Assembly: GCA_030390025.1 (NCBI GenBank)
Contig: CM059432.1
Location: 46,130,001 to 46,194,000, forward strand
Direction of reading: 5' to 3'
From: Squalus acanthias
Lineage: Eukaryota
DNA: 64,000 nt
Shown: piece after piece, positions 12,981-61,339 of the stretch
How the letters are laid out: every line of letters begins with the position of its first letter
Position numbering within the stretch: position 1 is the stretch's first letter
Position numbers and translations under genes: made by a program
Notes under the pieces: model-generated
Seen by the model: only the letters and a program-made list of their open reading frames with translations
Told to the model about the DNA's origin: nothing
Database searches by the model: none

Positions 12981-15185
12981 GGGCTAAAAATTCAGGGGCT
13001 TAACGCCACCTGTTACCGGCAAAAAATGGCAAAAAGAAGGCTAGCTGGTGGCGGGTCCGCTGCGTCCTACATTTTCCTACATTTTCCTAGGCCCGGTAGC
13101 GCTGCCATTAAGAAGTATCACCCTGCAAAGAAAAATGCCGGAGTGCACGCCGACTTAACGTCACCACAGCAAAATTTGAGCCTAGCGTTGAGTTCAGCGG
13201 TGGTCCTAAGCACAGCAGGTAAACCCAGCAGGCAAGGAGACTCACAAAGGTGCTGTCAGCACCTCTTAAAGGGACACACACATCTTTCAGTTAAGTTTGC
13301 AATTAAGCTTTTGGACTGGATGTTTTTGATTTTACTGAAGTAGTGGCTTGGTGCAATACATGTTAAAAGTTTTTTAAGTGAGTAGGGAGTGCTGCTGGAT
13401 GCTTGCAAGGCCTCGGATGGTAAAATAACAGAAAATGCTGCAAATACTCAGCACGTCAGGCAACATCCATGGAGAGAGAAACAGAGTTCATGTCTCAGGT
13501 CAAGATGCTGCCTGACCTGTTGAATATTTCCAGCATTTTATGCTGTCATTTCAGAGTTACAGCACCCGCTCACAGAGGGAAGAGGAAGATGCAGAAGAGG
13601 TAGAAGCAGAAGAGGAGAAAGCAGAAGAGGAGGAAGCAGAAGGAAGGATGCAACCCAGACAGTCTCTTTCTAGTCGGGATATCTGGGATGGAATCATCCA
13701 CCTGCGGTCTCAGTGACCACAACCCCAATTCCCTTTTCAACATTAGCCCCACACCTTACCTTCCCTCTGTTACTGACCATCACAGTGTCCTCTTGGCCAC
13801 GATGCTGAAATAAAAGCCACCAGAAAGCAAACTTTCCAATCCAACTTTATACATCTATCCATCCAATATGAAATCAAGAAATCAACTCATCACCCTTATG
13901 CATTCTCTTAGTGACTGTCTTGTGTGTGCCTTTGCCTATCCTAGTGATGTCACACAGTGCTACCCAAGTGGCTGCAGCATGGCTGGAGGAAGGCTGCTGA
14001 ATTTCAGTGGGGGACATTAAAAATGGCCTTGCTGGTCGACCTTGAGGAGCTGGTGGCTGGGAGTGTGAAATCAAGTAACGGTGTTTCTTCTTCTTTTTCT
14101 TCTTCACTCTTCTCTCCCTCTTCTTGGCCAACCACTGGCTGGGTAGGCTTCATTTCTTGGGTGTGTGAAATGAGGAAGGCGCAAGGGTGGAGTTGTGGTG
14201 AGGGGAGGGCGGAAAAGCAAGAGGTGCATGCCAGAAGGAGGATAACGTATGAGGATACCAGCATCTTGTATCCTTTCTGCCCTGTTGCTGGCCAAGGGCT
14301 TAGCCATGCCCCTGCCAAGAATAGCCTGCACCGTCTCCTCCAAGGGGTGAGGTGAGGTGAGGCTAGGAATGGGAAATCTGCCTCGTGATTGGTACAGATT
14401 GTTAGTAGGTGAGTAATTGACGGGGGGAGTCAAGCTTTGAGCAGTGTGTGAGGATAGTGTTTCAGTTAGTAGGAGACGACTTTTGAAGATGCATTCACTG
14501 GCCTTGACCAGTGGTCTGAAGTCATGAAGCATCATTGGGCACTGGAGCCAGATGGTGGGGTGACACTGCTGGCAGTGACAGCCTTGGTGATGTGGTCCCA
14601 CATCCTTCTTTCTGGAAGGCCTCCTGGCCCCTTGTGGGTAGAGGACCTCTCTTGCAGTGTTGACCTCCTGCACAAAGCTAGAGTGCTGCATGCAAGACCC
14701 TGGGTGCCCCTTCCCTGGCTTGCTGAGCCATTTGTGTTAGCGCTGAAGCACTTTTCCCATTTTTTGAGGTTCGGAAGGGAATTCAGCTTTCAGTGCTGAA
14801 GACTCCCTTTTGGGACTTCTTTTTCTAATGTTAATGTTTGTTAAAAAGGCAGTAAGGGCTGAAAACTTCAATTTTTATTAGCTCTGAACGCATTGCCCCT
14901 TTAATTCATAGACCTTTTAATGACCCACAATTCCTTGTGAACTCCACAGCCTTGCTCCCAGAGGCTGTTAGAAGCTGAAACGCTGCTTCAGGATGGGAAC
15001 ATCGACTTCCATGCCTGCGCTAACGCCACCAGGAGGGCATTACATAGTAAGTTAGCACTGGGCTAAAAATCTTTGGCCCCCAGCGCAAATTTTTCTCGAG
15101 TAGCGCTGCGTCCATTTTCAACGGCCGTTAACCCGAGTTGCCAATGACACCAGCAACTCTTGTGGCGGCCACGAATTTTTCCCCC
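12981..15185. mobile_element. Internally deleted Harbinger element with a Myb-like remnant on the minus strand
   Basis: TIR GGGCTAAAAATTC...GAATTTTTCCCCC; TSD TAA; VQEVNTAREVLYPQGARRPS...WLQC remnant at 14500-14690. Confidence 0.75.
13420..13570. repeat. Palindromic Penelope-derived short element (head-to-head arms; ribozyme core mostly lost)
   Basis: AAAATGCTGCAAATACTCAGCACGTCAGGCAACATC ... GATGCTGCCTGACCTGTTGAATATTTCCAGCATTTT; same family as 21550-21682 and 55167-55469. Confidence 0.65.
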
Positions 15186-21549: not shown

Positions 21550-21682
21550 ACAAAAGCAAAATACTGCACATGTTGGAAATCCAAAATAAAAATAGAAACT
21601 GCTGGAAATATTCAGCAGATCAGGCAGCATCTGTGGAGAGATAAACAGAGTAAACATTTCAGGTCGGTGACCTTTTGTCAGA
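21550..21682 (-). repeat. Penelope-derived short element with a degenerate hammerhead core
   Basis: Minus strand CTGACAA-A-AGGTC-ACC-GACCT-GAAA-TGTT...; the changes are compatible with CpG decay of CTGACGA and GAAACGT. Confidence 0.65.
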
Positions 21683-22205
21683 TCTATCTACATATGCTTA
21701 TTCTGTGTTTTTGCACTGCTTCCATTACAGCACTTGATCACTCAGTCCGCCATAAGTGAACATTCGTAAATGGTACAAGCACATCATTAACATTTTCTGT
21801 ACTGTAATGCTTCAATGAGTGTTGGGGAATGATAGAACTGAATATGCTACTATTACTCATAGTAGGCCCATGGTGCAGAAATTGGAATAGAAGGGAGTGC
21901 TGCTGAAACATAGAAACATAGAAACATAGAAGATAGGAGCAGGAGTAGGCCATTCGGCCCCTCGAGCCTGCTCCGCAATTCAATGCGATCATGGCTGATC
22001 ATCCAAATTCAGTACCCTGTCCCTGCTTTCTCCCTATATTCCTTGGTCCCTTTAGCTTTAAGAAATATATCTGACTCCTTCTTGAATATATTTAATGAAT
22101 TGGCCTCAACTGCCTTGGGTGGTAGAGAATTCCACAGGTTCACCACTCTCTGGGTGAAGAAATTCCTCCTCATCTCAGTCCTAAATGGCTTACCCCTTAT
22201 CCTTA

Positions 22206-22417
22206 TGTGAGAAGTCGCACAACACCAGGTTATAGTCCAACAGGTTTATTTGAAATCACAAGCTTTCGGAGCGCTGCTCCTTCGTCAGGTGAAGTCACGA
22301 AGGAGCAGCGCTCCAAAAGCTTGTGATTTCAAATAAAACTGTTGGACTATAACCTGGTGTTGTGCGACTTCTCACATTTGTCCACCCCAGTCCAACACCG
22401 GCATTTCCACATCATGG
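22206..22417. mobile_element. Penelope-like inverted terminal-repeat (hairpin) insertion
   Basis: ~80-bp inverted arms (22206-22285 / 22297-22377); matches 44150-44276; TSD CCCTTATCCTTA/CCCTTATTCTTA. Confidence 0.85.
22256..22292 (-). ncRNA. Minimal type I hammerhead ribozyme core
   Basis: UCAC-CUGACGA-A-GGAGC-AGC-GCUCC-GAAA-G-CUU-GUGA: stem I UCAC/GUGA, stem II GGAGC/GCUCC, palindromic stem III AAGCUU. Confidence 0.75.
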
Positions 22418-22755: not shown

Positions 22756-25700
22756 TGGCAGGGGGTTGGGAACCTGAGCAGGGAGACAGAGGAAAGGGAA
22801 ACAAGGATAAAAGCAAAAGATAGGAAGGAGAAAAACAAAAGTGGCAGTCAGAGAAAACAACGGTTTAAATCAAACATGGCCACAGTAAATACAAATTCTA
22901 ATAGGTCTAAGAGCGTTAAAAAAACAAGCCTGAAGGCTTTGTGTCTTAATGCAAGGAGCATTCGGAACAAGGTGGATGAATTAGCTGCGCAAATAGAGGT
23001 AAACAAATATGATTTGATTGGGATTACCGAAACATGGCTCCAGGGTGGCCAAGGCTGGGAACTCAACATCCAGGGGTACTCATTATTCAGGAAAGATAGG
23101 CAAAAAGGAAAGGGAGGTGGGGTAGCATTGCTGGTTAAAGAGGCGATTAACACAATTGAAAGGAAGGATATTAGCTCTGATGATGTGGAATCTGTATGGG
23201 TTGAACTGAGAAATAACAAGGGGCAGAAAACGTTAGTGGGAGTGATATATAGGTCTCGAAACAGTAATGCGGAGGTTGGGGATGGCATTAAAAGGGAAAT
23301 TAGAGAAGCATGCAATAAGGGCACAGCAGTCATCATGGGTGACTTTAATCTACATATAGATTGGGCTAACCAAATTAGTAACAATACTATGGAGGAGGAA
23401 TTCCTGGAGTGTTTACGGGATGGTTTCCTGGACCAATATGTCGAGGAACCAACCAGAGATCAGGCCATCTTAGACTGGGTATTATGCAATGAGAAAGGAT
23501 TAATTAGCAATCTTGTTGTGCGAGGCCCCTTGGGTTGGAGCGATCATAATATGATAGAATTCTTCATTAGGATGGAGAGTGAAGTAGTTGAATCAGAGAC
23601 TAGGGTCCTGAATTTAAATAAAGGTAACTTTGATGGTATGAGGTGCGAGTTGGGTAGGATTGATTGGGGAATGTCACTCAAAGGGTTGGCGGTGGATAGG
23701 CAATGGCAAACATTCAAAGACCGCATGGACGAACTACAGAATTTGTTCATCCCAGTTTGGCATAAGAATAAAACAAAAAGGGTGACTCAACCGTGGCTAA
23801 CGAGGGAAATTAGGGATAGCATAAGATCCAAGGAGAGGGCATATAAAATGGCCAGAAAAAGCAGTAACCCTGAGGATTGGGAGCAGTTTAAGATTCAACA
23901 AAGGAGGACAAAGGGATTAATTAAGAAGGGGAAAATAGAATACGAGAGTAAGCTTGCAGGGAACATAAAAACTGACTGTAAAAGCTTTTATAGATATGTG
24001 AAGAGAAAAAGATTAGTGAAATCAAGCATAGGTCCCTTGCAGTCAGAATCAGGGGAATTTATAATGGGGAACAAAGAAATGTCAGGCCAATTAAATACAT
24101 ATTTTGGTTCTGTCTTCACAAAGGAGGACACAAATAACCTCCCAGAGATGTTGGGGAACATAGGGTCTGATGAAAGGGAGGAACTGAAAGAAATCAGTAT
24201 TCGTAGGGAAATGGTGTTAGGGAAATTGAAGGGATTGAAGGCCGATAAATCCCCAGGGCCTGACAATCTACATCCTAGGGTACTTAAGGAAGTGGCCCTA
24301 GAAATAGTAGATGCATTGCTGATCATCTTCCAACATTCGATGGAATCTGGAACAGTACCCATGGATTGGAGGGTAGCTAATGTTACCCCACTATTACAAA
24401 AGGGTGGTAGAGAGAAAACGGGGAATTACAGACCGGTAAGCCTGACATCGGTAGTGGGGAAAATGCTAGAGTCCATTATAAAAGATGTAATAGCTGAGCA
24501 CTTCGAAAACAGTGACAGGATCGGACAAAGTCAACATGGATTTACAAAAGGTAAATCATGCTTGACTAATCTACTGGAATATTTTGAGGATGTAACTGGT
24601 AAAATAGATAATGGAGAACCAGTGGATGTGGTGTATTTGGACTTTAAGAAGGCTTTTGATAAGGTCCCGCATAAGAGATTAGCGTGTAAAGTTAAGGCAC
24701 ATGGGATTGGGGGCAAGGTATTGACTTGGATAGAGAACTGGTTGGCAGACAGAAAGCAAAGAGTTGGAATAAACGGGTCTTTTTCCGAGTGGCAAGCAGT
24801 GACTAGTGCGGTACCGCAGGGATCGGTCCTTGGACCCCAGCTATTCACAATATATATTAATGATCTAGACAAGGGAACTAGATGTAATATCTACAAGTTT
24901 GCAGACGACACAAAATTGGGTGGGCGTGTGTGCTGCGAGAAGGATGCTGAGAAACTCCAGGATGATTTGGACAGGTTGGGTGATTGGGCAGAAGCATGGC
25001 AGATGCAATATAACATGGATAAATGCGAGGTTATCCACTTTGGTGTCAAAAACAGAAAGGCAGATTATTATCTGAATGGCAATAGATTGGGAGAAGGGGA
25101 AGTGCAACGAGACCTGGGTGTCCTTGTGCAGCAGTCGCTGAAGGTAAGCATGCAGGTGCAGCAGGTGGTTAAGAAGGCAAATGGTATGTTGGCCTTCATA
25201 GCGAGAGGGTTTGAGTACAGGAACAAGGGTGTCCTGCTGCAGTTGTACAGGGCCTTGGTGAGACCACACCTTGAGTACTGTGTGCAGTTTTGGTCGCCTT
25301 ATCTGAGGAAGGATGTTCTTGCCATGGAAGGAGTTCAGCGAAGATTCACAAGGCTGATACCTGGGGTGGCAGGAATGACGTATGAAGAGAGATTGGGTCG
25401 ATTGGGCTTAAACTCGCTGGAGTTTAGAAGAATGAGAGGGGATCTCATTGAAACTTATAAAATTCTGACAGGACAGGACAAACTAGATGCAGGAAAATTG
25501 TTCCCGATGGTCGGGGAGTCCAGAACCAGGGGTCACAGTCTAAGGATAAGGGGTAAGCCATTTAGGACAGAAATGAGGAGGAATTTCTTCACCCAGAGAG
25601 TGGTGAACCTGTGGAATTCTCTGCCACAGAAGGCAGTAGAGGCCAATTCATTAAATAGATTCAAGAAGGAGTTGGATATATTTCTTAAGGCTAAAGGGAT

Positions 25701-25828
25701 CAAGGGATATGGGGAGAAAGCAGGGACAGGGTACTGAATTTGGATGATCAACCATGATCGAATTGAATGGCGGAGCAGGCTAGAGGGGCCGAATGGCCTA
25801 CTCCTGCTCCTATCTTCTATGATTCTAT
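22756..25828 (+). mobile_element. Young CR1 LINE, 5'-truncated just upstream of ORF2, with complete 3' UTR
   Basis: Frame open from 22756 to the stop at 25737; 3' UTR GGAGCAGGC...GCCTACTCCTGCTCC and TTCTATGATTCTAT tail. Confidence 0.95.
22876..25737 (+). CDS. CR1 ORF2 polyprotein: APE-type endonuclease + reverse transcriptase (953 aa, uninterrupted)
   Basis: Endonuclease motifs LNARSI, GITETWL, GGGVALL, IMGDFN, ILDWV, SDHN; RT motifs [38 protein letters not shown]-terminal LVRPHLEY. Confidence 0.95.
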   Translation: MATVNTNSNRSKSVKKTSLKALCLNARSIRNKVDELAAQIEVNKYDLIGITETWLQGGQGWELNIQGYSLFRKDRQKGKGGGVALLVKEAINTIERKDISSDDVESVWVELRNNKGQKTLVGVIYRSRNSNAEVGDGIKREIREACNKGTAVIMGDFNLHIDWANQISNNTMEEEFLECLRDGFLDQYVEEPTRDQAILDWVLCNEKGLISNLVVRGPLGWSDHNMIEFFIRMESEVVESETRVLNLNKGNFDGMRCELGRIDWGMSLKGLAVDRQWQTFKDRMDELQNLFIPVWHKNKTKRVTQPWLTREIRDSIRSKERAYKMARKSSNPEDWEQFKIQQRRTKGLIKKGKIEYESKLAGNIKTDCKSFYRYVKRKRLVKSSIGPLQSESGEFIMGNKEMSGQLNTYFGSVFTKEDTNNLPEMLGNIGSDEREELKEISIRREMVLGKLKGLKADKSPGPDNLHPRVLKEVALEIVDALLIIFQHSMESGTVPMDWRVANVTPLLQKGGREKTGNYRPVSLTSVVGKMLESIIKDVIAEHFENSDRIGQSQHGFTKGKSCLTNLLEYFEDVTGKIDNGEPVDVVYLDFKKAFDKVPHKRLACKVKAHGIGGKVLTWIENWLADRKQRVGINGSFSEWQAVTSAVPQGSVLGPQLFTIYINDLDKGTRCNIYKFADDTKLGGRVCCEKDAEKLQDDLDRLGDWAEAWQMQYNMDKCEVIHFGVKNRKADYYLNGNRLGEGEVQRDLGVLVQQSLKVSMQVQQVVKKANGMLAFIARGFEYRNKGVLLQLYRALVRPHLEYCVQFWSPYLRKDVLAMEGVQRRFTRLIPGVAGMTYEERLGRLGLNSLEFRRMRGDLIETYKILTGQDKLDAGKLFPMVGESRTRGHSLRIRGKPFRTEMRRNFFTQRVVNLWNSLPQKAVEANSLNRFKKELDIFLKAKGIKGYGEKAGTGY

Positions 25829-41156: not shown

Positions 41157-42155
41157 AAAGGATCTTAGCTCCGAAAATCAAGAAGTAGAATCAGTTTGGG
41201 TGGAGATAAGAAACAGCAAGGGGCAGAAAACATTGATGGGAGTTGTTTATAGGCCACCAAACAGTAGTTGTAATGTAGGGCAGAGGATAAATCAGGAAAT
41301 TAGAAGCGCATGTAACAAGGGTAATACAGTAATCATGGGGGACTTTAATCTACATATAGACTGGACAAAGCAAATTTGCAGTAATAGTGTGGAGGACGAA
41401 TTCGTGGAAAGTATGCTAGATATTTTTCTAGATCAGTATGTTGAGGAACCAACTAGAGAACAGGCTATTTTATATCTAGCAATTAGAAAGGGTTAATTAA
41501 TAACCTTGTAGTAAAGGGGCCTTTAGGGAAGAGTAACCATAATATGATAGAATTTTATATTGAGTTTGAAAGTGATTTAGTTAAATCCAAAACTAGGGTC
41601 TTAAATCTAAACAAAGCAAACTACGTAGGTATGAGGGGCAAGTTGGCTAAGGTAGATTGGGAAACTAGATTAAAAGGTATGACGACAGAGAAGCAATGAC
41701 TAGCACTTAAAGAATTAATACATAATTTACTACAAATATACATTCCTTTAAGGCACAAAAACCCCACAGGAAAAGTGGTCCAATCGTGGCTAACAAGAGA
41801 AGTTAAAGATAGTATTAGATCACAGGAAGAGGCTTATAATGTTGCCAAAAAGAGTAGTAAGCCTGAGGATTGGGAGGATTTTAGAATTCAGCAAAGGAGG
41901 ACCAAGAAATTGATAAAGAAAGGGAAAATAGAATATGAGAGTAAACTAGCGAGAGACATAAAAACAGACTGTAAAAGCTTCTATAGGTATGTAAAAAGGA
42001 AAAGATTAGCGAAAGTAAATGTGGATCCCTTACAGGCTGAGACAGGAGAAATTATACTGTGGAATAAGGAAATGGCAGAGAAATTAAACAAAAATTGTGT
42101 GTCTGTCTTCATGGAAGAAGGCGCAAAAAACTTCCGAGAAATAGTGGAGAACTAA

Positions 42156-42872
42156 GGGGGAAAAATTGAGTCGCGCCCCCTTTGGGGAGCTAACTTCGCC
42201 GGAGTGCTACTTTTAGTGCCCTGAAAAAATTAGCTCCCCCGCGACCAAAATTGAGTGGTAGCGCCTCAAGAGTGAAGCAGGGCGCTACTGGAAGCGCCCT
42301 GCCTCCCTCTTGGGGCGCTGCGAGGGAATATCTCAGCGCTAAGTGCCACGGTATTGCAGGCCTTCCTCCCCTTCTTAAAGGGGCCACTGGGGATCGGAGT
42401 GCCGGCAAAAGAGCCTGGCACTCCAGAGAAGTGCCGGGCTCATGGAGCGCAGCCGGCACTCAGCGGGGGGGGGGTTGGGGGGGGCGGGTCAGCAGGCCAG
42501 GGACGGCAGCGGAGGCAGGTGCTGGCAGATGGCCAGCAACAAAAATGGCCGCCCGGCACCTCGCCTTTAAATAGCACCACCCCTGCCGCAGGTAGGCCCC
42601 CCTGACCCCGTTGGACATAGCGTCCGGTGGTATGTCAGGGGGCGCTACTGAAGATTGCGGACGGGGCAAGAGTGGGGCGCTGCGCACGGTGATGATGTCA
42701 TCGCCGGCGGCGAAGCGCCGCGGGGCACTAACGGTTAGCACTGCCACTAACTTCCCGCTGAATTTCGCGGGCGACGTTGTTGGCACCGCGCCTGGGCGCA
42801 AGTGGCTTTGTGCCTCATTAGCGCCCTCTTAGGGCACTAATGGGAGGCGCAAAGCAACCAAATTTTTCTCCC
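42156..42872 (+). mobile_element. Harbinger-type MITE, family B, opposite orientation to 40458-41156
   Basis: GGGGGAAAAATT...AATTTTTCTCCC; TSD TAA/CAA; removal restores CR1 EN(Q)GSS. Confidence 0.88.
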
Positions 42873-43239
42873 CAAGGGTCTAGCGAGAATGAGGAACTGA
42901 AAAAAAATTAGTAAAAAAAGTCCTGGAGAAATTAATGGGACTGAAAGCCGATTAATCCCACGGACCTGATGGCCTACATCCTAGGGTTTTGAAAGTGGTG
43001 GCTATAGAGATAGTGGATGCATTGGTTGTCATTTTCCAAAATTCCATAGATTCTAGAATGGTTTCCATGGATTGGAAGGTAGCAAATGTAACCCCACTAT
43101 TTAAGAAAGAGGGAGAGAGAAAATGGGGAACTACAGACCAGTTAGCCTGACATCAGTAGTAGTGAAAATGCGAGATTCTATTATTAAGGAAGTGGTAACA
43201 GAGCACTTAGAAAATAATAATAGGATTGGGCAGAGTCAT

Positions 43240-44276
43240 TGATGACATGTTGAAGGCTGATGACGATGAACACCTCGCTAAGGCCATCCCCACGCCTCCA
43301 CTACTCGCCTTCAAACAGCCGCCTAACCTCAAACAGACCATCGTTCTCAGCAAATTATCCAGCTTTCAGGAGAACAGCGACCACGACACCACACAACCCT
43401 GCCACGGCAACCTCTGCAAGACATGCCAGATCATCAACACAGATACCATCATCACACATGAGGACACTACCCACCAGGTACATGGTACATACTCATGTGA
43501 CTCGGCCAACCTTGTGTACCTCATACGTTGCAGGAAAGGATGCCCCAGAGCATGGTACATCGGCGAGACCATGCAGACACTGCGACAACGTATGAACGGA
43601 CACCGCACAACAATCGCCAGGCAGGAGTGTTCCCTCCCAGTCGGGGAACACTTCAGCAGTCAAGGACATTCAGCCTCCGATCTTCGGGTAAGCGTTCTCC
43701 AAGGCGGCCTTCGAGACACACGACAACGCAAAATCGTCGAGCAGAAACTGATAGCCAAGTACCGCACCCATGAGGACGGCCTCACACAGGATCTTGGGTT
43801 CATGTCACGCTACATGTAACCCCACCTGACGTAGAGTCATCCAGACACGAGTCCTCGTTGGCTTGTTCTCTCTACACAGATGCGGCCGGACCTGCTGTGA
43901 TTTCCAGCAAAAAACATTTTTGTTTTCCATACGGACCCCAGCATCTGCCACATTTGACCCCTTGTGACCCCACCTCATTGTCTTTGATGTAATGTTTTCC
44001 TGACTGACCTGTTTGGACACCATCCACACCTTTGATTGCCGTGATTATCTCTCTGCCGAGATATGATAAAGGGTAGTTAGAAAGATTAACTGTAATCATC
44101 TGGCAGTGTTCTCTGACTATATATGCTGTGACTATATGCATCTCTTCACTTCACCTGATGAAGGAGCAGCGCTCCGAAAGCTTGTGATTTCAAATAAAGC
44201 TGTTGGACTATAACCTGGTGTTGTGCGACTTCTCACATTTGTCCACCCCAGTCCAACACCGGCATCTCCACATCAT
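43240..44276 (+). mobile_element. Penelope-like element 3' part: GIY-YIG endonuclease remnant plus hammerhead-bearing terminal repeat
   Basis: ORF 43226-43819: AFKQPPNLKQ, C...CKTC linker, SANLVYLIRC...WYIGET...RMNGHR, VGEHF...GH, EQKLI...GL; its 3' end matches 22297-22415. Confidence 0.9.
44151..44187 (+). ncRNA. Minimal type I hammerhead ribozyme core
   Basis: UCAC-CUGAUGA-A-GGAGC-AGC-GCUCC-GAAA-G-CUU-GUGA, sense to the GIY-YIG ORF. Confidence 0.78.
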
Positions 44277-47200
44277 TCAATAAGGTGCCACACAAGAGGT
44301 TATTAAACAAAATTAGGGCTCATTGTATTGGAGGTAATATACTAGCATGGATCAAGGATTGGTTAATGGACAGAAAACAGAGAGCAGGAATAAACGGGTC
44401 ATTTTCGGGTTGACAGGCTCTAACTAGTAGGTTAACGCAAGGATCAGTGCTTGGGCCTCAGCTATTCACAATCTATATCAATGATTTGGATGAGAGGACC
44501 AAATGTAATATATCCAAGTTTGCTGATGATACAAAGCTGGGTGGGAATGTAAGTTGTGAGGAGGATGCAAAGAGGCTTCAAGGGGATATAGACAAGCTAA
44601 GTGAGTGGGTAAGAACATGGCAAATGGAATATAATGTGGAGAAATGTGAAATTATCCACTCTGGTAGGAAAAATAGAAAAGCAGAGTATTTTTTAAAAGG
44701 TAAGAGATTGGGAAATGTTGGTGTTCAGAGGGACCTGGGTGTCCTTGTACACGTATCACTGAAAGTTAACATGCAGGTACAGCAAGTAATTAGGAAAGCA
44801 AATGGTATCTTGGCCTTTATTACAAGAGGATTTGAGTATAAGAGTAAAGACGTCTTACTGCAATTATATAGGGCCCACACCTGGAGTATTGTGTACAGTT
44901 TTGGTCTCCTTACCTAAGGAAGGATATACTTGCCATAGAGGGAGTGCAACGAAGGTTCACCAGACTGATTCCTGGGATGGGGGGATTGTCCTTTGAGGAG
45001 AGATTGAGTAGACTAGGCCTATATTCTCTAGAGTTTAGAAGAATGAGAGGTGATCTCACTGAAACATACAAAATTCTTACAGGGCTCGACAGGGTAGATG
45101 CAGACAGGATATTCCCCTGGCTGGAGAGTATAGAACCAGGGGTCACAGTCTCAGAAGAACGGGTCAGCCATTTAGGACTGAGATGAGGAGAAATTTCTTC
45201 ACTCAGAGGGTGGTGAATCTTTGTAATTCTCTACCCCAGAGGGTTGTGGAGACTCAGTCATTGAGTATATTCAAGACAGAGATTGATAGATTTTTGAATA
45301 TTAAGGGAATCAAGGGATATGGGGATAGTGTAGGAAAGTGGAGTTGAGGTAGAAGATCAGCCATGATCTTACTGAATGGCGGAGCAGGCTCGAAGGGCCA
45401 AATGGCCTACTCCTGCTCCTATTTCTTATGTTCTTATGATGAATATATGGTATTGCATCATCAGATCATTATTGTAATGTCAAAAATGTTAAGATCAATC
45501 TTTTCCTTTGACCGATATATGGTGCTGATATTACGTGATTTCTCGGAATACATCGTCAGTGCTTGAAAAAAATTAATCAGAAATGTTAACTGTGACTAAA
45601 AATGCTCTGCTGCCTGCAGTCAAGCCAGCTTTCAGTTCTGTACTGAATCTGGCAGCAACTGAATCAGTTTAATCATATCTGTAGTCATTTTGTCTATATT
45701 TCTTTCTAATGCAGTCCCTTTCCATTTTTCAGTTCACCCTTTGCCACACTTGACTGAGAGGCAGCCAGGCAATTTCTGATAAGCAAATTGTCTCTGGGAA
45801 GATTCACGAGAGATGCAAGGGGGCTTGGAATAAAAGAGCAGAAGAAAGCACAGAGGAAGGAAAGGTAGCCACAGCACACAATATTATTGGAAGGTATAGT
45901 ATTGTAAATAAGAACCTTCCCTGATCGTTTACTGAGTAAATGCTACACAGACAAAAAGATGCTGCATTTAATTCTTGGTCTGTGTTGAGTTCGCTGTCTT
46001 CAGTCGGGGCAATGGTATGGGTGCTACAATTTGCCTTAATGTCCTGGGCAAAGAAAGGCAAAATCAATCAGAGCTTCCACTCCTGATTGCCATCCACTGA
46101 CCCCTCCTGGAAAGTGTGCCTGTGTGGAGATCCAATGTGAACAGGAATGGCAACACCCTCCACTGCCAAATATTTGGCAACATTCATTGCCTTGATTTAC
46201 ATATGAAGGATGGGCACTTAGATGAAGTACTGGAGGCTTCCTGATGTCTGTTTGGGTCATACCTCAGCAGGAGTGGACTTTGTGCATTTTAATTTCTACA
46301 GTAAGTTACATAGCCTGTCATTACAAAGAAGAGTACAATACTATGTGGAGGCTAACACTTACTTATTGCTCATCCTATACGTTCCCTGAGAAGGTGACGA
46401 TGGGCCTGCTTCTTGCTTTATAGCAATTGCTCTTAGAACTGAGTGGCTTGCTAGACCACTTCAGAGGACATCAATGCCGAATTTCCCCGGGGCTTCCAAT
46501 GATCTTCCATCAAAGTTACGGTGGCTTATCGGGAAAACCCCCAAGGAAAATCCCAGTGTAAGAATCAATCATGCAGTGTGCGTCTAAAGTCATGTGTAGA
46601 TCAGGCTGCCTGGGGCTGTCAGAATCCCTTCCTTGAAGGGTATTAATGAACCACTTGAGTATTTTGTTCCTCATACATAACCAGATTTATTGAATTCAAT
46701 TTCACAACTTGCCATGCTGTGATTTGAGCTAATGACCTCTGGGTTGTTAGTCCACCATCCAACATGGTGGATTGCTGTCCCGCACTCGTGAACAAAGGCA
46801 TTTAGTGAACTCGTCCATATTTCTAGCCACACTTTGCAGGGTGGTTTGGACATCCTCAAGAGACTCCAGTTAGACAATTACACTAAGATAGCAATCTTCT
46901 GTTTATAATCAGGCCTTATGAAGTCCGAATCCCTCGGCTTTACAGCTGAGGAAGGCTGTGAGGTGAACTTCAAGCTAGGCAATGGAAAAGCGCCAAAAGA
47001 AACCAGACATTAAAGCTTATGCTGGAACCCTCATGCAAATGACCTGGAACAAGAAATGTATGTGCACTTCTCCTCTTGCAGGCGCAGCGCACATCAGGTG
47101 CATTGCAGCAAAAGAGGAAAATCTACCCCTGTATGAAGCTTAGTGTATGTTCCTGCAAGTATTATATAATCTGTAATATAGCCTGCACTCTGTATCTAAT

Positions 47201-55166: not shown

Positions 55167-55469
55167 AAATAACAACAGAAAACGCTGGAAAAACTCAGCA
55201 GGCCAGGCAGCATCCGTGGAGAGAGAAAGAGAGTTGACGTTTCAGATCGATGACCTTTCATCAGAACTGGGAAGAGCCGGAAATCAAATAGATTTAAGGC
55301 CAGGGTAAAGCTGGGAAAAGGGGGAGGGGATAAAGGAACAAAGGAGGAGATGAAGAGACATTAAGAGACATTAAGAGATATGCAAGGCTAGAGGTGATGT
55401 TAATGTGACAGATTAAGGCTGAATGAAGTGTGAAATCCACTGGCAGAATGAAGGACAGCTGCCAGCTTC
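55167..55469 (-). mobile_element. 303-bp non-coding Penelope-derived insertion with a hammerhead, inside a truncated MITE-like element (about 54980-55868)
   Basis: Perfect 12-bp TSD AAGGATTATTAG (55155-55166, 55470-55481); GATGCTGCCTGGCCTGCTGAG motif. Confidence 0.82.
55232..55268 (-). ncRNA. Minimal type I hammerhead ribozyme core with a GUC cleavage triplet
   Basis: AGUU-CUGAUGA-A-AGGUC-AUC-GAUCU-GAAA-C-GUC-AACU: stem I AGUU/AACU, stem II AGGUC/GAUCU, palindromic ACGU stem III. Confidence 0.8.
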
Positions 55470-56547: not shown

Positions 56548-58947
56548 TCATGTCCAAATTCCTGCCCGCTCCCCGTAACCCTTAATGCCCTTTACTTCTA
56601 GGAAACTGTCTATTTCTGTTTTAAATTTAATTAATGTTGTAGCTTCTACAGCTTTTTGTGGCAGCATATTCCATGGACCTACCACCCTCTGAGTGAAGTA
56701 GTTCCTCCTCATCTCAGTTTTGAAAGAGCAGCCCCTTATTCTAAGACTATGTCCCCTAGTTCTCGTCTCACCCGTCATCGGGAACATCCTCCCCGCATCC
56801 ACCCGATCCAACCCCTTCACAATCTTATATGTTTCAATAAGATCGCCTCTCATTCTTCTGAACTCCAATGAGTAGAGTCCCAATCTACCCAACCTCTCCT
56901 CATATGACCACCCCCTCATCCCCGGGATTAACCGAGTGAACCTTTTTTGCACTGCCTCGAGAGCAAGGATGTCTTTCCTTAAGTAAGGACACCAAAACTG
57001 TATGCAGTATTCCAGGTGCGGTCTCACCAATACCTTGTACAACTGAAGCAATACCTCCCTATTTTTATATTCTATCCCCCTAGCAATGAAAGCCAACATT
57101 CCATTTGCCTTCTTAATCACTTGCTGCACCTGCATACTAACCTTTTGAGTTTCGTGCACCAGGACCCCCAGATCCCTTTGCACTTCAGTACTCTCCAGTT
57201 TCTTGCCATTAAGATAATAAATTGCTCTAGGATTTTTCCTGCCAAAGTGCATCACCTCACACTTTCCAGTGTTGTATTCCATCTGCCAAATCTCTGCCCA
57301 CTTACTTAGCCTGTCTATGTCCCCTTGCAGGTTTTTTATGTCCTCCTCACTCACTACTTTCCCTCCCATCTTTGTATCATCTGCAAATTTTGATATGTTA
57401 CACTTGGTCCCTTCCTCCAAATCGTTAATATAGATTGTGAAGAGTTGGGGACCCAGCACTGACCCCTGTGGAACACCACTAGTTACTGATTGCCAGTCTG
57501 AGAATGAACCATTTATCCCAACTCTTTGCTTTCTGTTAGATAGCCAATCCTCTATCCATGCCAGAATATTACCCCCAATCCCGTGATTTTTTACCTTAAG
57601 CAATAATCTTTTGTGTGGCACCTTGTCAAATGCCTTTTGGAAGTCTAAATACACTACGTCCACTGGTTCCCCTTTATCCACTCTATATGTTACTTCCTCA
57701 AAGAACTCCAGCAAATTTGTCAAACATGACTTCCCCTTCGTAAAACCATGCTGACTTTGTCCTATTAAATTATGATTATCCAAATGTCCTGTTACTGTTT
57801 CCTTAATAATGGACTCCAAAATTTTACCTACCACAGATGTTAGGCTAACCGGTCTATAGTTACCAGCCTTCTGTCTACTGCCCTTTTTAAATAAGGGTGT
57901 TACATTAGCAGTTTTCCAGTCTGCCGGGACCTTAGCGGAATCCAGGGAGTTTTGAAAAATTATTACCAATGCATCTACAATCCCTACCGCCACTTCCTTC
58001 AAGACTCTAGGATGTAAGCCATCAGGTCCAGGTGATTTATCCGCCTTGAGTCCCATTATTTTACCGAGTACCACTTCCTTAGTGATTTTGATCGTGTTTA
58101 GCTCCTCTCCCCCTATAGCCCCCTGTTTGTCCAGTGTTGGGATATTCTTAGTGTCCTCTACTGTAAAGACTGATACAAAATATTCATTCAGTGTTTTTGC
58201 CATCTCCATATTTCCCACCATTAATTTCCCGGTCTCATCCTCTAAGGGACCAACATTTACTTTAGCCACCCTTTTTCTTTTTATATAACTATAAAAACTC
58301 TTACTATCTGTTTTTATATTTTTTGCTAATTTACTTTCATAATCTATCTTCCCTTTCTTAATCAATCTTTTTGTTATTTTTTGCTGCCTTTTAAAGTTTT
58401 CCCAATCCTCTGTCCTCCCACTAGATTTCGCTACCTTATATGCCCTTGTTTTTAGTCGAATACTATCCTTAATTTCTTTACTTAGCCACGGATGACTGTC
58501 CTTTCTTTTACACCCTTTTCTTTTCAGTGGAATATATTTTTTTTGGAAGTTGTAAAATAACTCCTTGAATGTACACCACTGATCATGTGTCGTCTTACCC
58601 TTTAATCTATTTTCCCAATCCACTCTACTCAATTCCGCTCGCATACCTTCATAGTCTCCTTTATTCAAGCTTAGCACGCTTGTTTGAGATCCAACCTTCT
58701 CACCCTCTAATTGAATATGGAATTCAACCATGTTATGGTCACTCATTCCAAGGGGATCCTTTACTAGGACATTTTTAATTAATCCTGTCTCGTTACACAG
58801 GACCAGATCTAAGGTTGCTTGCCCCCTGGTCGGTTCAGTTACATACTGCTCAAGAAACCCATCCCTAATACACTCAATGAACTCATCCTCAAGGCAGCCC
58901 TGCCCCATTTGATTTGTCCAATTAATATGATAGTTAAAATCCCCCAT
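56548..58947 (-). CDS. CR1 ORF2, 5'-truncated within the endonuclease, otherwise uninterrupted (799 aa); element spans about 56313-58952
   Basis: Starts at [32 protein letters not shown] and LVRPHLEY all in one frame. Confidence 0.92.
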   Translation of the reverse strand: MGDFNYHINWTNQMGQGCLEDEFIECIRDGFLEQYVTEPTRGQATLDLVLCNETGLIKNVLVKDPLGMSDHNMVEFHIQLEGEKVGSQTSVLSLNKGDYEGMRAELSRVDWENRLKGKTTHDQWCTFKELFYNFQKKYIPLKRKGCKRKDSHPWLSKEIKDSIRLKTRAYKVAKSSGRTEDWENFKRQQKITKRLIKKGKIDYESKLAKNIKTDSKSFYSYIKRKRVAKVNVGPLEDETGKLMVGNMEMAKTLNEYFVSVFTVEDTKNIPTLDKQGAIGGEELNTIKITKEVVLGKIMGLKADKSPGPDGLHPRVLKEVAVGIVDALVIIFQNSLDSAKVPADWKTANVTPLFKKGSRQKAGNYRPVSLTSVVGKILESIIKETVTGHLDNHNLIGQSQHGFTKGKSCLTNLLEFFEEVTYRVDKGEPVDVVYLDFQKAFDKVPHKRLLLKVKNHGIGGNILAWIEDWLSNRKQRVGINGSFSDWQSVTSGVPQGSVLGPQLFTIYINDLEEGTKCNISKFADDTKMGGKVVSEEDIKNLQGDIDRLSKWAEIWQMEYNTGKCEVMHFGRKNPRAIYYLNGKKLESTEVQRDLGVLVHETQKVSMQVQQVIKKANGMLAFIARGIEYKNREVLLQLYKVLVRPHLEYCIQFWCPYLRKDILALEAVQKRFTRLIPGMRGWSYEERLGRLGLYSLEFRRMRGDLIETYKIVKGLDRVDAGRMFPMTGETRTRGHSLRIRGCSFKTEMRRNYFTQRVVGPWNMLPQKAVEATTLIKFKTEIDSFLEVKGIKGYGERAGIWT

Positions 58948-61339
58948 AATTATTTATGTCCACCTATCATATTATGATCACTCTTCCCTAGAGGATCCTT
59001 TACTATGAGATTACTAATTAACCCTGTTTCATTACACAATACAAGATCTAAAATAGCCTGTTCCCTGATTGGTTCCACAAAGTAGTGTTCCAGGAAACTG
59101 TCTTGAATGCATTCCATGAACTCGTCTCCAGACTATATTTGCCAATTTGATTTGCCCAATCTATATGAAGATTAAAGTCCCCCACGATTATTGCATTATC
59201 TTTGTTACAAGCACCTACTATTTCTTGATTAATGCTCTGTCCAACAGTATAGCTACTGTTAGGGGGCCTATAAACTATTCCCACCAGTGTTTTCTGCCCC
59301 TTATTATTTCTTATCTCCACCTATACTAATTCTATATCCTGATCTTCCAAGCCAAGATCCTTTCTCACTACTGTCCGCATGTCATCCTTTATTATCCCCC
59401 CTTTTCCATTCTGTATGTCTTTTTGAAGCGTCAAGTACCCTGGAATATTTAGTTCCCAACCTTGGTCACCTTGCAACCACGTCTCTGTAATAGCTATTAG
59501 ATCGAAGCCATGTATCTCTACTTGTGCCACTAATTCATCTATCTTGTTACAAATGCTTCATGAAATCAGATAAAGAGCCTTTAATTTTAAACTTTTTACC
59601 ATTATTCCCTGTTTTCACCTTATTCGCTCGTGCACTATTACTGTTAAACTCTCTGTCCCTTTTCTGCTTATCTTTACCCAAATCGCTACATTGCTCCATT
59701 GCCTTGACTTTTCTCTTTAGATTTCTAAATTTCCCCTCACCTGACCCCTCCCCCCACTTTTTAGTTTAAAGCCCTCGCTACAGCCCTAGTTATTCGATTC
59801 GCCAGGACACTGATCCCAGCCCAGTTTAAGTGGAGCCTCTCCCAACGGAACAGCTCCCTCTTTCCCCAGTATTGGCTCCAGTGCCCTATGAATCGAAACC
59901 CCTTCCTCCCACACCACTCTTTGAGCCATGCATATAACTATCTGATCTGCTTGTCCCTTTGCCAATTTGCGCGTGACTCAGATAACGGAGATTATTACCT
60001 TTGAGGTTCTGCATTTTAATTTGAACCCTAGTTCCTCAAACTCTCTCAGCAGAACCTCATTCCTAGTTCTACCTATGTCATTGGTTCCTACGTGGAACAT
60101 GACAGCTGGATCCTCCCCCTCCCACTTCAAATTCTTCTCCAGCCACAAGGGAATATCCTTAACCCTGGCACCATGCAGGCAACACAGCCTTCGGAACTCC
60201 CGGTCGCAGCTGCAGAGAATAGTATCGAGCCCCTTGACTATACTGTCACCTACCACTACAACATTCGTTTTCACTACCCCCACTCGAATGGCCTCCTGTA
60301 CCATGGTGCTGTGGTCAGTAAGCTCATCCACCCTGCAGACTTTGCCCTCATCCACACAGGCAGCAAAAACCTCATACGTGTTGGATAAGGGCAAAGGCCG
60401 AGGCCCCTCCAGCACTGCACCTGGGGTCCCCTTACCTGCCTGAGTTGCAGTCACACCCTCCTGGCCCTGACTACTAACCAGACCTGTATCACTACCTAAC
60501 CTAAGGGATGTGACTGCCTCCTAGGTCAACATGTCCAGATAACTCTCCCCCTCCCTGATGCCCTGCAATATTTGCACCTTTCTCTCCAGCTCAACAACTC
60601 TGAGCTGAAGTTCATCGAGATACAGACACTTACTGCAGACGTGGTCGTCCGGGATCACGATGCTCTCCACAAACTCCCACATGCTGCAGTTGTGGCACAC
60701 CACCTGCACTGCCATCCTTGTTGCATTTATTTAATTAATTAAAGTTTACTTAGCTTATAGTTTAGCTTTTTAACTAATTACTAGATCTAGTTTAAGGTAT
60801 AGGTTGATAAAATTAAATATTTATCTGTAACACAAAGCACTACAAGAATTGAGGCAAAAAGCAGCACCTGCTGCCTCTCTGCTCTGAATTCCCATTCTCT
60901 CCAAATTACCAACTTTAACACTCTGTTTAGAAGCACTCCATTTAAGACCACTCCGTTTATGGATATCCTAGTTGTGTATGTGTAAACTCTCATACAACAT
61001 ATATTTCTTGCTGAACCTCTGTTTTTAGAGAAAACTTGTAACGCATTGCAGACAATTTTATTCGGCTCCTGTAGAACAGTCCATTTCTTTTTTCCTTTTT
61101 TTGAGAAGCAATTGTTACCAAAATGACCACCCTAGTCAATTTTGAGCTCTTATCAATCTTCTTCAAGAAAAAAAGCTTTTATATAACACCTTTCACATCT
61201 CAGGCCAATGAAGTATTTTGAAAATGCAGTCTTTGTGCCCGGCCGATAATTGCGCCCCAAACGAGGCGAAACCAAATTTCTCCCCCTTTGCTTCTCTAGT
61301 TGTATATCAAAGTCTAGAATATATTGGAATAAACTGGAA

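Follow-up and report, generated by a model that had tools for sequence, protein, structure and literature searches.

The window that we analysed is a stretch of 64,000 nucleotides from Squalus acanthias (contig CM059432.1), a LINE-rich vertebrate region in which 5 of the 16 open reading frames scanned match RVT_1. Two long open frames at 22756-25737 (+) and 56548-58953 (-), with 993 and 801 codons, respectively, and with AP endonuclease and reverse transcriptase (RT) domains, are young CR1/L2-type LINEs. A LINE of this type also hosts the sequence in question, a Penelope-like element (PLE) copy in which an ORF remnant, an untranslated region (UTR), a TATA-Inr pair, a hammerhead motif and a tail follow each other in this order (Table 1). 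Upstream of the element, the same host CR1 carries a GC-rich insert (42155-42877) with inverted-repeat-like ends and an internal hairpin, which looks like a non-autonomous DNA transposon and gives a weak Rfam match to RUF6-5 below the gathering score.

Table 1. Positions of the Penelope-like copy, its parts and the segments compared with it in the window
Feature	Position	Strand	Remarks
Second family copy, head-to-head fold-back of two pLTR arms	22205-22415		inside CR1
Host CR1/L2-type LINE (partial extent)	43150-44917	+	flanks the element on both sides; RVT_1 match 44414-44914
PLE part	about 43235-44276	+	ORF remnant to tail
Inverted 24-bp piece of the element's own upstream ORF sequence	43235-43258	-	5' junction; GTCA common to the CR1 flank
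5'-truncated PLE ORF: CX4CxxC linker and GIY-YIG endonuclease	43259-43819	+	186 codons plus TAA, no internal stop
Left copy of 15-bp direct repeat	43815-43829	+	spans the stop codon; likely old target-site duplication
Relic: core-broken GUC-type hammerhead (43826-43861) and tail like that of the 55232 family	43826-43962	+	blastn, tail identity
Right copy of 15-bp direct repeat	43963-43977	+	13/15 identical to the left copy
3' UTR block homologous to the catshark P0003 read-through tail	43999-44034	+	top match across the entire + strand, with a minimum of 8 base changes in 36
Predicted pLTR promoter	44118-44150	+	TATA 44118-44124; Inr-like TCACT 44146-44150, A at 44148; spacing 30
Minimal type I hammerhead, AGCU palindrome, CUU triplet	44151-44187	+	37 nt; predicted cut between 44183 and 44184
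pLTR 3' part or tail	44188-44276	+	9-bp stem 44201-44209 with 44250-44258; ends at the family 3' boundary
Comparison hammerhead of a second family, ACGU palindrome, GUC triplet	55232-55268	-	37 nt; no ORF found nearby

The coding remnant lies in an open frame from 43211 to 43819 that terminates with a TAA at 43817-43819. Its best homologue is P0002 of Heptranchias perlo, a protein of 643 aa comprising RT and endonuclease, with 90.3% identity over 186 aa; 36 longer homologues were obtained at E ≤ 0.001 among 312 candidates, and other sharks rank next after P0002. A Pfam scan of the endonuclease protein from the window returned no family, and its aligned homologues P0020 and P0023 match Pfam GIY-YIG (PF01541) in the region aligned to it. 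Identity, domain order and these Pfam matches bear out the description of the ORF as a Penelope GIY-YIG remnant in the initial annotation. All 13 aligned sequences share the three cysteines of the linker, C54, C59 and C62 (CX4CxxC). C86, C97, H121 and H137 are likewise invariant in the endonuclease alignment, which relates to a CCHH criterion whose exact published residue definition may differ. A CX2-5CxxC zinc-finger linker has been reported to mark Neptune and Nematis as opposed to Penelope and Poseidon elements (Craig et al. 2021, 10.1101/2021.04.23.441226; Arkhipova et al. 2013, PMC3846280), and the PLEs reported from vertebrates are Neptune or Poseidon. Because the CX4CxxC linker is present, the element would be assigned as Neptune-like, Nematis being set aside by host range only, which answers the initially posed question of a Neptune or a Poseidon type. 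Pieces of the endonuclease are also included in the shark gene models P0006, P0007, P0015, P0016, P0018, P0030, P0032, P0035 and P0037, whose host genes are unrelated (septin 5a, XRCC5, PPP1R12A, cytochrome P450 and others); these pieces appear to be exonised copies or annotation artefacts.

The element had initially been delimited to 43240-44276, of which the 3' end is correct and the 5' start has to be moved to about 43235. Position 44276 is a sharp 3' boundary of the family, behind which heterogeneous loose ends are found in the runs X1 (126 records, agreement 0.37) and X21. At the 5' end, the reverse complement of 43235-43258 equals, with one likely CpG change as the sole mismatch, the consensus of the loose ends in front of 43259 in run X9 (35 records, agreement 1). 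Both junctions show short microhomologies and no target-site duplication, and about 120 bp of the CR1 target are missing, as four intact CR1 copies in the window contain 125 bp between the anchors of which 3 are left here. Synthesis of this copy ended in the 24-bp inversion with microhomology, and the target deletion may have arisen at insertion or later.

A further copy of the family is present in the window as two head-to-head pLTR arms (22205-22415) that are identical to the element at 114/117 and 89/91 positions. The CR1 target is duplicated over 11-12 bp, and the copy is a young fold-back insertion. It contains an intact hammerhead at 22256-22292 (-), which was absent from the list of the initial annotation; in the inverted arm the start of the core is missing and GAAA is changed to AAAA. 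The forward arm begins exactly at the equivalent of the Inr adenine 44148 and is preceded by one untemplated G; a joint at 44148 is also seen in X1 and X6. A cap-derived G is known at the starts of retro-insertions. We infer from this single junction that the start at 44148 with its extra G may reflect an RNA 5' end with a copied cap. Transcription would hence start at about 44148, three bases before stem I, so that the hammerhead would be the first structure of the RNA. A pair of TATA and TCACT has been described in the pLTRs of Adineta (PMC3846280), and head-to-head pLTRs are a known arrangement of PLEs (10.1101/2021.04.23.441226; PMC3846280). A non-LTR retrozyme was considered and rejected, as there is a single copy on an ORF remnant and the second copy is an inverted pair, with no tandem repeats.

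At its other end, the fold-back copy extends at 22415 two letters past the equivalent of 44276, which completes an ATG; the tail therefore likely ends at the ORF start codon, as read from this one junction. The 9-bp stem of the tail is kept through two A-to-G wobble changes in L001, the closest relative of the element described below, in which a TATA-Inr pair with a spacing of 31 also stands upstream of the hammerhead. The folding of the tail stem is not significant (z about -1.5), and the z-scores of monomer and tail folding, none of them significant, span -0.3 to -1.6. A pseudoknot in the tail, formed by two overlapping complementarities, was rejected as geometrically unlikely by reasoning alone. 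Read depth, taken as a rough measure and not as a copy number, peaks over the hammerhead and the tail in all four runs, which derive from four coded organisms.

The hammerhead between promoter and tail starts 332 nt after the TAA of the ORF, in agreement with the roughly 330 bp behind the GIY-YIG stop stated initially. It is composed of stem I (UCAC/GUGA), CUGAUGA, an extra A, stem II (GGAGC/GCUCC) with a 3-nt loop, GAAA and the G-C-U-U end. A strict scan, which requires 4/4 pairs in stem I, at least 4 in stem II and a palindromic 15.2-16.2, recovered three full motifs in the window (44151 +, 22292 - and 55268 -) among five matches to the core pattern, and the mean number of full motifs in 200 first-order Markov random windows was 0.0. 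With Rfam, neither the window (E ≤ 1) nor the segment 43800-44300 (E ≤ 10) yielded a hammerhead match, and the RUF6-5 and miRNA matches stay below their gathering scores and are unrelated. The monomer fold of the motif is unremarkable (z -1.64), and searching viral contigs for it gave 0 matches.

Minimal hammerheads (min-HHRs) have been described in the pLTRs of metazoan PLEs, with several covarying families per genome (Cervera & de la Peña 2014, PMC4209133). Like these type I motifs, the one at 44151 has intact CUGANGA and GAAA cores, an extra nucleotide after position 9, the G10.1-C11.1 pair, G-C at 15.2-16.2 within its AGCU palindrome, a short stem I of 4 bp, and U-rich upstream and AU-rich downstream flanks; helix III has no loop and the triplet CUU obeys the NUH rule. 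It sits in a PLE pLTR, and its segment recurs in the fold-back copy and behind the endonuclease in L001. The published set already contains the extra nucleotide, the palindromic 15.2-16.2 and an example of G-C-U-U, this end being shared with the Chrysemys picta row (Fig. S3) and stem I with the Petromyzon row of PMC4209133, whereas the stem II sequence and the 3-nt loop are specific to the family at 44151. No shark row was found in the searched part of that supplement. By its sequence the motif thus fits the published min-HHR consensus in every feature and is of a kind already known. That CUU is a permitted but slow triplet, as the initial annotation held, agrees with a secondary statement that ranks it among the slowest NUH triplets (PMC8879150).

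To find relatives without regard to the RNA, loci were fetched by alignment of the endonuclease, which gave 12 loci out of 86 candidate stretches in metagenome contigs. Six of the 12 (L001, L003, L004, L006, L007 and L010) carry a downstream hammerhead on the ORF strand with at most one core change, and L002 and L005 carry decayed ones on the same strand; L008, L009, L011 and L012 have none or too short a flank. In L004 (3146-3195), a distant relative, the stem III region of the hammerhead is 4 nt longer than in the sister loci. L001, with 57% amino acid identity the closest relative, has the same CUU/AGCU type of hammerhead, whose stem I begins 276 nt past the first base of the stop codon. 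Against 44151, it has both partners of the pairs I.4 and II.3 replaced and a wobble at II.4. L001 and the two window copies retain every letter of the catalytic core, while the stems and the loop differ. Among the differences listed from reads and contigs (best 40 of 133), the only one within 44151-44187 is at the free position N7 (44159). A single listed difference over 37 nt is close to what the rate across the whole element predicts, and an excess conservation of the hammerhead is hence not supported. The same protein search confirmed 0 of 30 candidate stretches in viral contigs and 1 of 32 in genome contigs; the latter, L013, has only 33 bases downstream and is uninformative on the hammerhead. 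L013 (726-1271) encodes a Neptune-like endonuclease (55% aa); its contig of 1.3 kb is assigned to the genome of a bacterial gill symbiont and is likely host animal DNA within that assembly.

The initial annotation had compared the motif with the one at 55232, described the stems of the two as fully covarying and taken this as an argument for selection on the fold. The comparison motif is real, equally 37 nt long, and the two belong to distinct families. All 18 scored cells (9 pairs x 2) are paired, seven of the nine pairs being changed on both sides, one on one side and one unchanged, and 40 of 5000 column shuffles reached this pairing. Pairing is therefore fully kept, but covariation is not complete, as II.2 and the fifth pair of stem II are identical. 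The comparison is weak and partly circular because only two motifs, chosen for pairing, are compared and neither a common flank nor a tie to an ORF is shown: tblastn with three PLE proteins found only the 43259 locus in the window, and nothing ties 55232 to a PLE ORF. The constraint on the fold is supported, but the two-motif comparison does not serve as its proof; the orthologous comparison with L001 is the better evidence and the real test.

Across four different families, 35 of 36 cells are paired, which none of 5000 shuffles reached, although these shuffles take no account of relatedness and pairing was in part a criterion in the choice of motifs; for all 12 parsed motifs the count is 97 of 108. 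Pairs were counted by motif parse, as a MAFFT alignment of the 12 motifs misaligned stem II, and the count leaves out L004 with its elongated stem III region and one weak L011 match; L002, L008, L009 and L012 had no parsable motif. At 10.1-11.1 the 55232 motif has A-U where G10.1-C11.1 is the usual pair, which the 44151 motif possesses. The same A-U is carried by the second-family motif at 21650-21686, and published min-HHRs mostly have G-C at this place. Decayed copies of the 55232-type tail lie at 21560-21686 (-) and at 13424-13552, those at 13.4-13.5 kb being a pair arranged head to head like a fold-back.

A stem III without a loop forms the active fold only as a pair of motifs (Cervera & de la Peña 2014, PMC4209133). 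Following this work, two copies of the 44151 motif, such as those of a tandem pLTR-ORF-pLTR transcript, would have to pair by means of stem I and the AGCU palindrome. In our models the homodimers keep 12 of 12 intermolecular pairs and a heterodimer of 44151 and 55232 loses 9 of 12, and the two families are therefore predicted not to cross-activate. The double-hammerhead dimer (-19.1 kcal/mol) is not the predicted minimum when compared to an alternative dimer at -28.9 kcal/mol, so help from protein or context would be needed, as was found for PAc, the Poseidon element of Anolis carolinensis (Frangieh et al. 2024, PMC11167929). Self-cleavage of the motif is predicted to be slow and to occur in same-family dimers only. 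As suggested by PAc and by the anatomy of the element, the RT/endonuclease protein would bind the tail stem and prime near 44276. Genomic copies that span the hammerhead would derive from uncut RNA, because reverse transcription starting near 44276 passes the predicted cut; by analogy with PAc, such a template fits a slow CUU ribozyme gated by a dimer or by protein.

The energy of the active dimer would also suit a motif that no longer cleaves and whose shape persists as a structural or protein-binding element at the 5' end by the start site, or just because the family is young and its copies share descent. The low rank of CUU points in the same direction, as do the poor cleavage of min-HHRs in vitro (PMC4209133) and the observations for PAc that no reads ended at the cut site and that hammerhead mutants still inserted (PMC11167929). 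However, the PAc hammerhead does cleave with protein help (PMC11167929), and the core letters of both window copies and of L001 have stayed intact at 57% protein identity while stems and loop changed. We thus regard a complete loss of cleavage as unlikely and retain the slow, dimer-dependent ribozyme as the preferred reading.

Directly behind the stop codon the element carries a 148-bp insert with a third, broken hammerhead motif (43826-43861), neither of which the initial annotation had mentioned. By blastn this relic matches 55184-55227, 21600-21644 and 13436-13480, and a block of its tail is identical at 23 of 28 positions to the tails of two family-2 copies (55232 and 21650). The relic has G-C at 10.1-11.1, unlike the motifs at 55232 and 21650 with A-U, and the donor would therefore be a related but distinct subfamily of the 55232-type family. 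It is enclosed by the direct repeat of Table 1, whose 13/15 match, found post hoc, was reached in 5 of 3000 Markov shuffles of 43830-44276. The catshark read-through tail in P0003 offers an independent view of the site: there, the homologous UTR block lies 33 nt after the stop equivalent, whereas here its distance is 182 nt to the stop and 34 nt to the right repeat; P0003 would therefore represent the empty site for exactly the 148 bp, as read from one gene-model read-through. The Heptranchias read-through P0016 does not show an empty site and is uninformative (16/36 changes either way), and no relic was found behind the endonuclease ORF of L001. Contig pieces bridge the ORF end and the relic in X1, X6 and X9, which represent three organisms, and these copies differ by about 8-17%. 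The simplest reading of these sequences is one old retro-insertion of a 148-bp pLTR piece of a 55232-like family at the stop codon of the master element, followed by decay of its core, which would make it now a likely passenger.

In the window copy the relic has five defects, at 43847 and 43854 and in the core at A9 (43832), A14 (43851) and A15.1 (43852), so that it departs from the min-HHR core by three letters. Position 43847 carries the pairing letter in about 100% of the depth in X1, X6 and X9 (2/2 reads in X21), and 43854 does so in 99, 89 and 93%, respectively; the defects at these two positions are private to the window copy. Restoring both pairing letters gives a stem II with 5/5 pairs and a GUC triplet. 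The core positions 43832, 43851 and 43852 are not among the best 40 of 133 differences listed. Over 1201 bases, X1 and X9 list one T>A place each and X6 lists four; as 43832 and 43852 would both need such a place, at least one core defect is the majority state in X1 and X9, and these counts imply that at least one core letter of the relic differs in more than 90% of the depth in both runs.

A more far-reaching interpretation would be that the Neptune master swallowed a working hammerhead pLTR of a rival Penelope family at its stop and that only a version with disarmed core and intact stems spread across several shark species, with stem I and the palindrome (AGCU vs ACGU) acting as a family-specific dimer code against cross-activation. 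Only a disarmed core could have spread in this case because a cut at this place would sever the ORF from the priming tail. Selective disarming is, however, unsupported: changes in 3 of 11 core letters are expected by drift at 18-25% divergence (P 0.32-0.54), and the comparison of core with paired positions gives 0.05 for three changes and 0.15 if the adjacent two are counted as one event. We therefore hold this interpretation as speculative and rather doubtful next to one insertion with subsequent decay.

The relic might instead be an active second ribozyme in most family members that is broken only in the window copy. The two private defects would agree with this, as would a stem I that pairs 4/5, the four T>A places in X6, the restriction of the differences listed to the best 40 of 133 and the possible clipping of short contigs with more mismatches. 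On the other side stand the single T>A place in X1 and X9, the absence of the three core positions and of any indel at them from these best-supported differences, and the depth at 43854, which is close to the flanking bins, and we consider an active relic quite improbable. A promoter swap, in which the relic would be the original pLTR hammerhead of the element and the CUU pLTR a later acquisition, is very improbable. More distant endonuclease relatives (36-42% aa) do carry GUC hammerheads about 100-240 nt past the ORF end, but in the closer L001 the CUU motif is already accompanied by the same promoter and tail, and a relic is absent. In addition, the catshark UTR is without exactly the 148 bp, a direct repeat encloses the relic, and the relic resembles another family that occurs in the window. 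The captured and decayed passenger hence remains the reading that we prefer.

When compared to characterized systems, the element shares with the Neptune clade the C-terminal GIY-YIG domain with its CX2-5CxxC linker, a hammerhead in the pLTR, 5' truncation, inverted 5' pieces and head-to-head pLTRs (10.1101/2021.04.23.441226; PMC3846280); it differs in that the RT is absent from the window copy, and the linker is shared by Nematis. PAc likewise has a pLTR hammerhead, an uncut RNA template and a stem-loop behind the hammerhead as the predicted start of reverse transcription, but it belongs to the Penelope/Poseidon clade and is without the zinc-finger linker, and its ORF starts inside the hammerhead, whereas the start codon here would likely lie about 90 nt downstream, at the end of the tail (PMC11167929). 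Pen1_Av of Adineta vaga resembles the element in foreign DNA between the ORF end and the 3' pLTR and in its TATA and TCACT (PMC3846280); its spacers, however, are unique host DNA that differs between copies, and here a fixed, hammerhead-bearing repeat piece is found in many copies. One chondrichthyan genome was sampled in 10.64898/2026.07.22.740005, a captured second-family relic is not described in the part of PMC4209133 covered here, and in the open-access literature we found no paper on a shark PLE hammerhead or on a captured second-family hammerhead. Only the relic was thus not found in print, and the hammerhead at 44151 is an ordinary member of the class described in 2014.

In conclusion, we consider it highly probable that 43235-44276 is a 5'-truncated shark copy of a Neptune-type Penelope-like element with a min hammerhead of known type in its pLTR, predicted to be slow and to act as a same-family dimer, and with a likely dead relic in its 3' UTR that probably stems from a single capture from another Penelope family and has since been copied together with the element. 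The hammerhead at 44151 adds a shark Neptune example to the 2014 class and in this respect changes little. It offers a test case for the role of such motifs in vivo: the slowest kind of triplet is conserved with compensatory changes up to a relative of 57% identity, the motif lies three bases past the predicted start, and the copies that span it would derive from uncut RNA. The relic documents a cross-family insertion into a PLE master element and can serve to trace the lineages of shark subfamilies. Proof of a selective disarming of its core would raise its importance; if that reading were true, relic and hammerhead together would form a natural experiment that could tell if PLE hammerheads cut in vivo and at which place.
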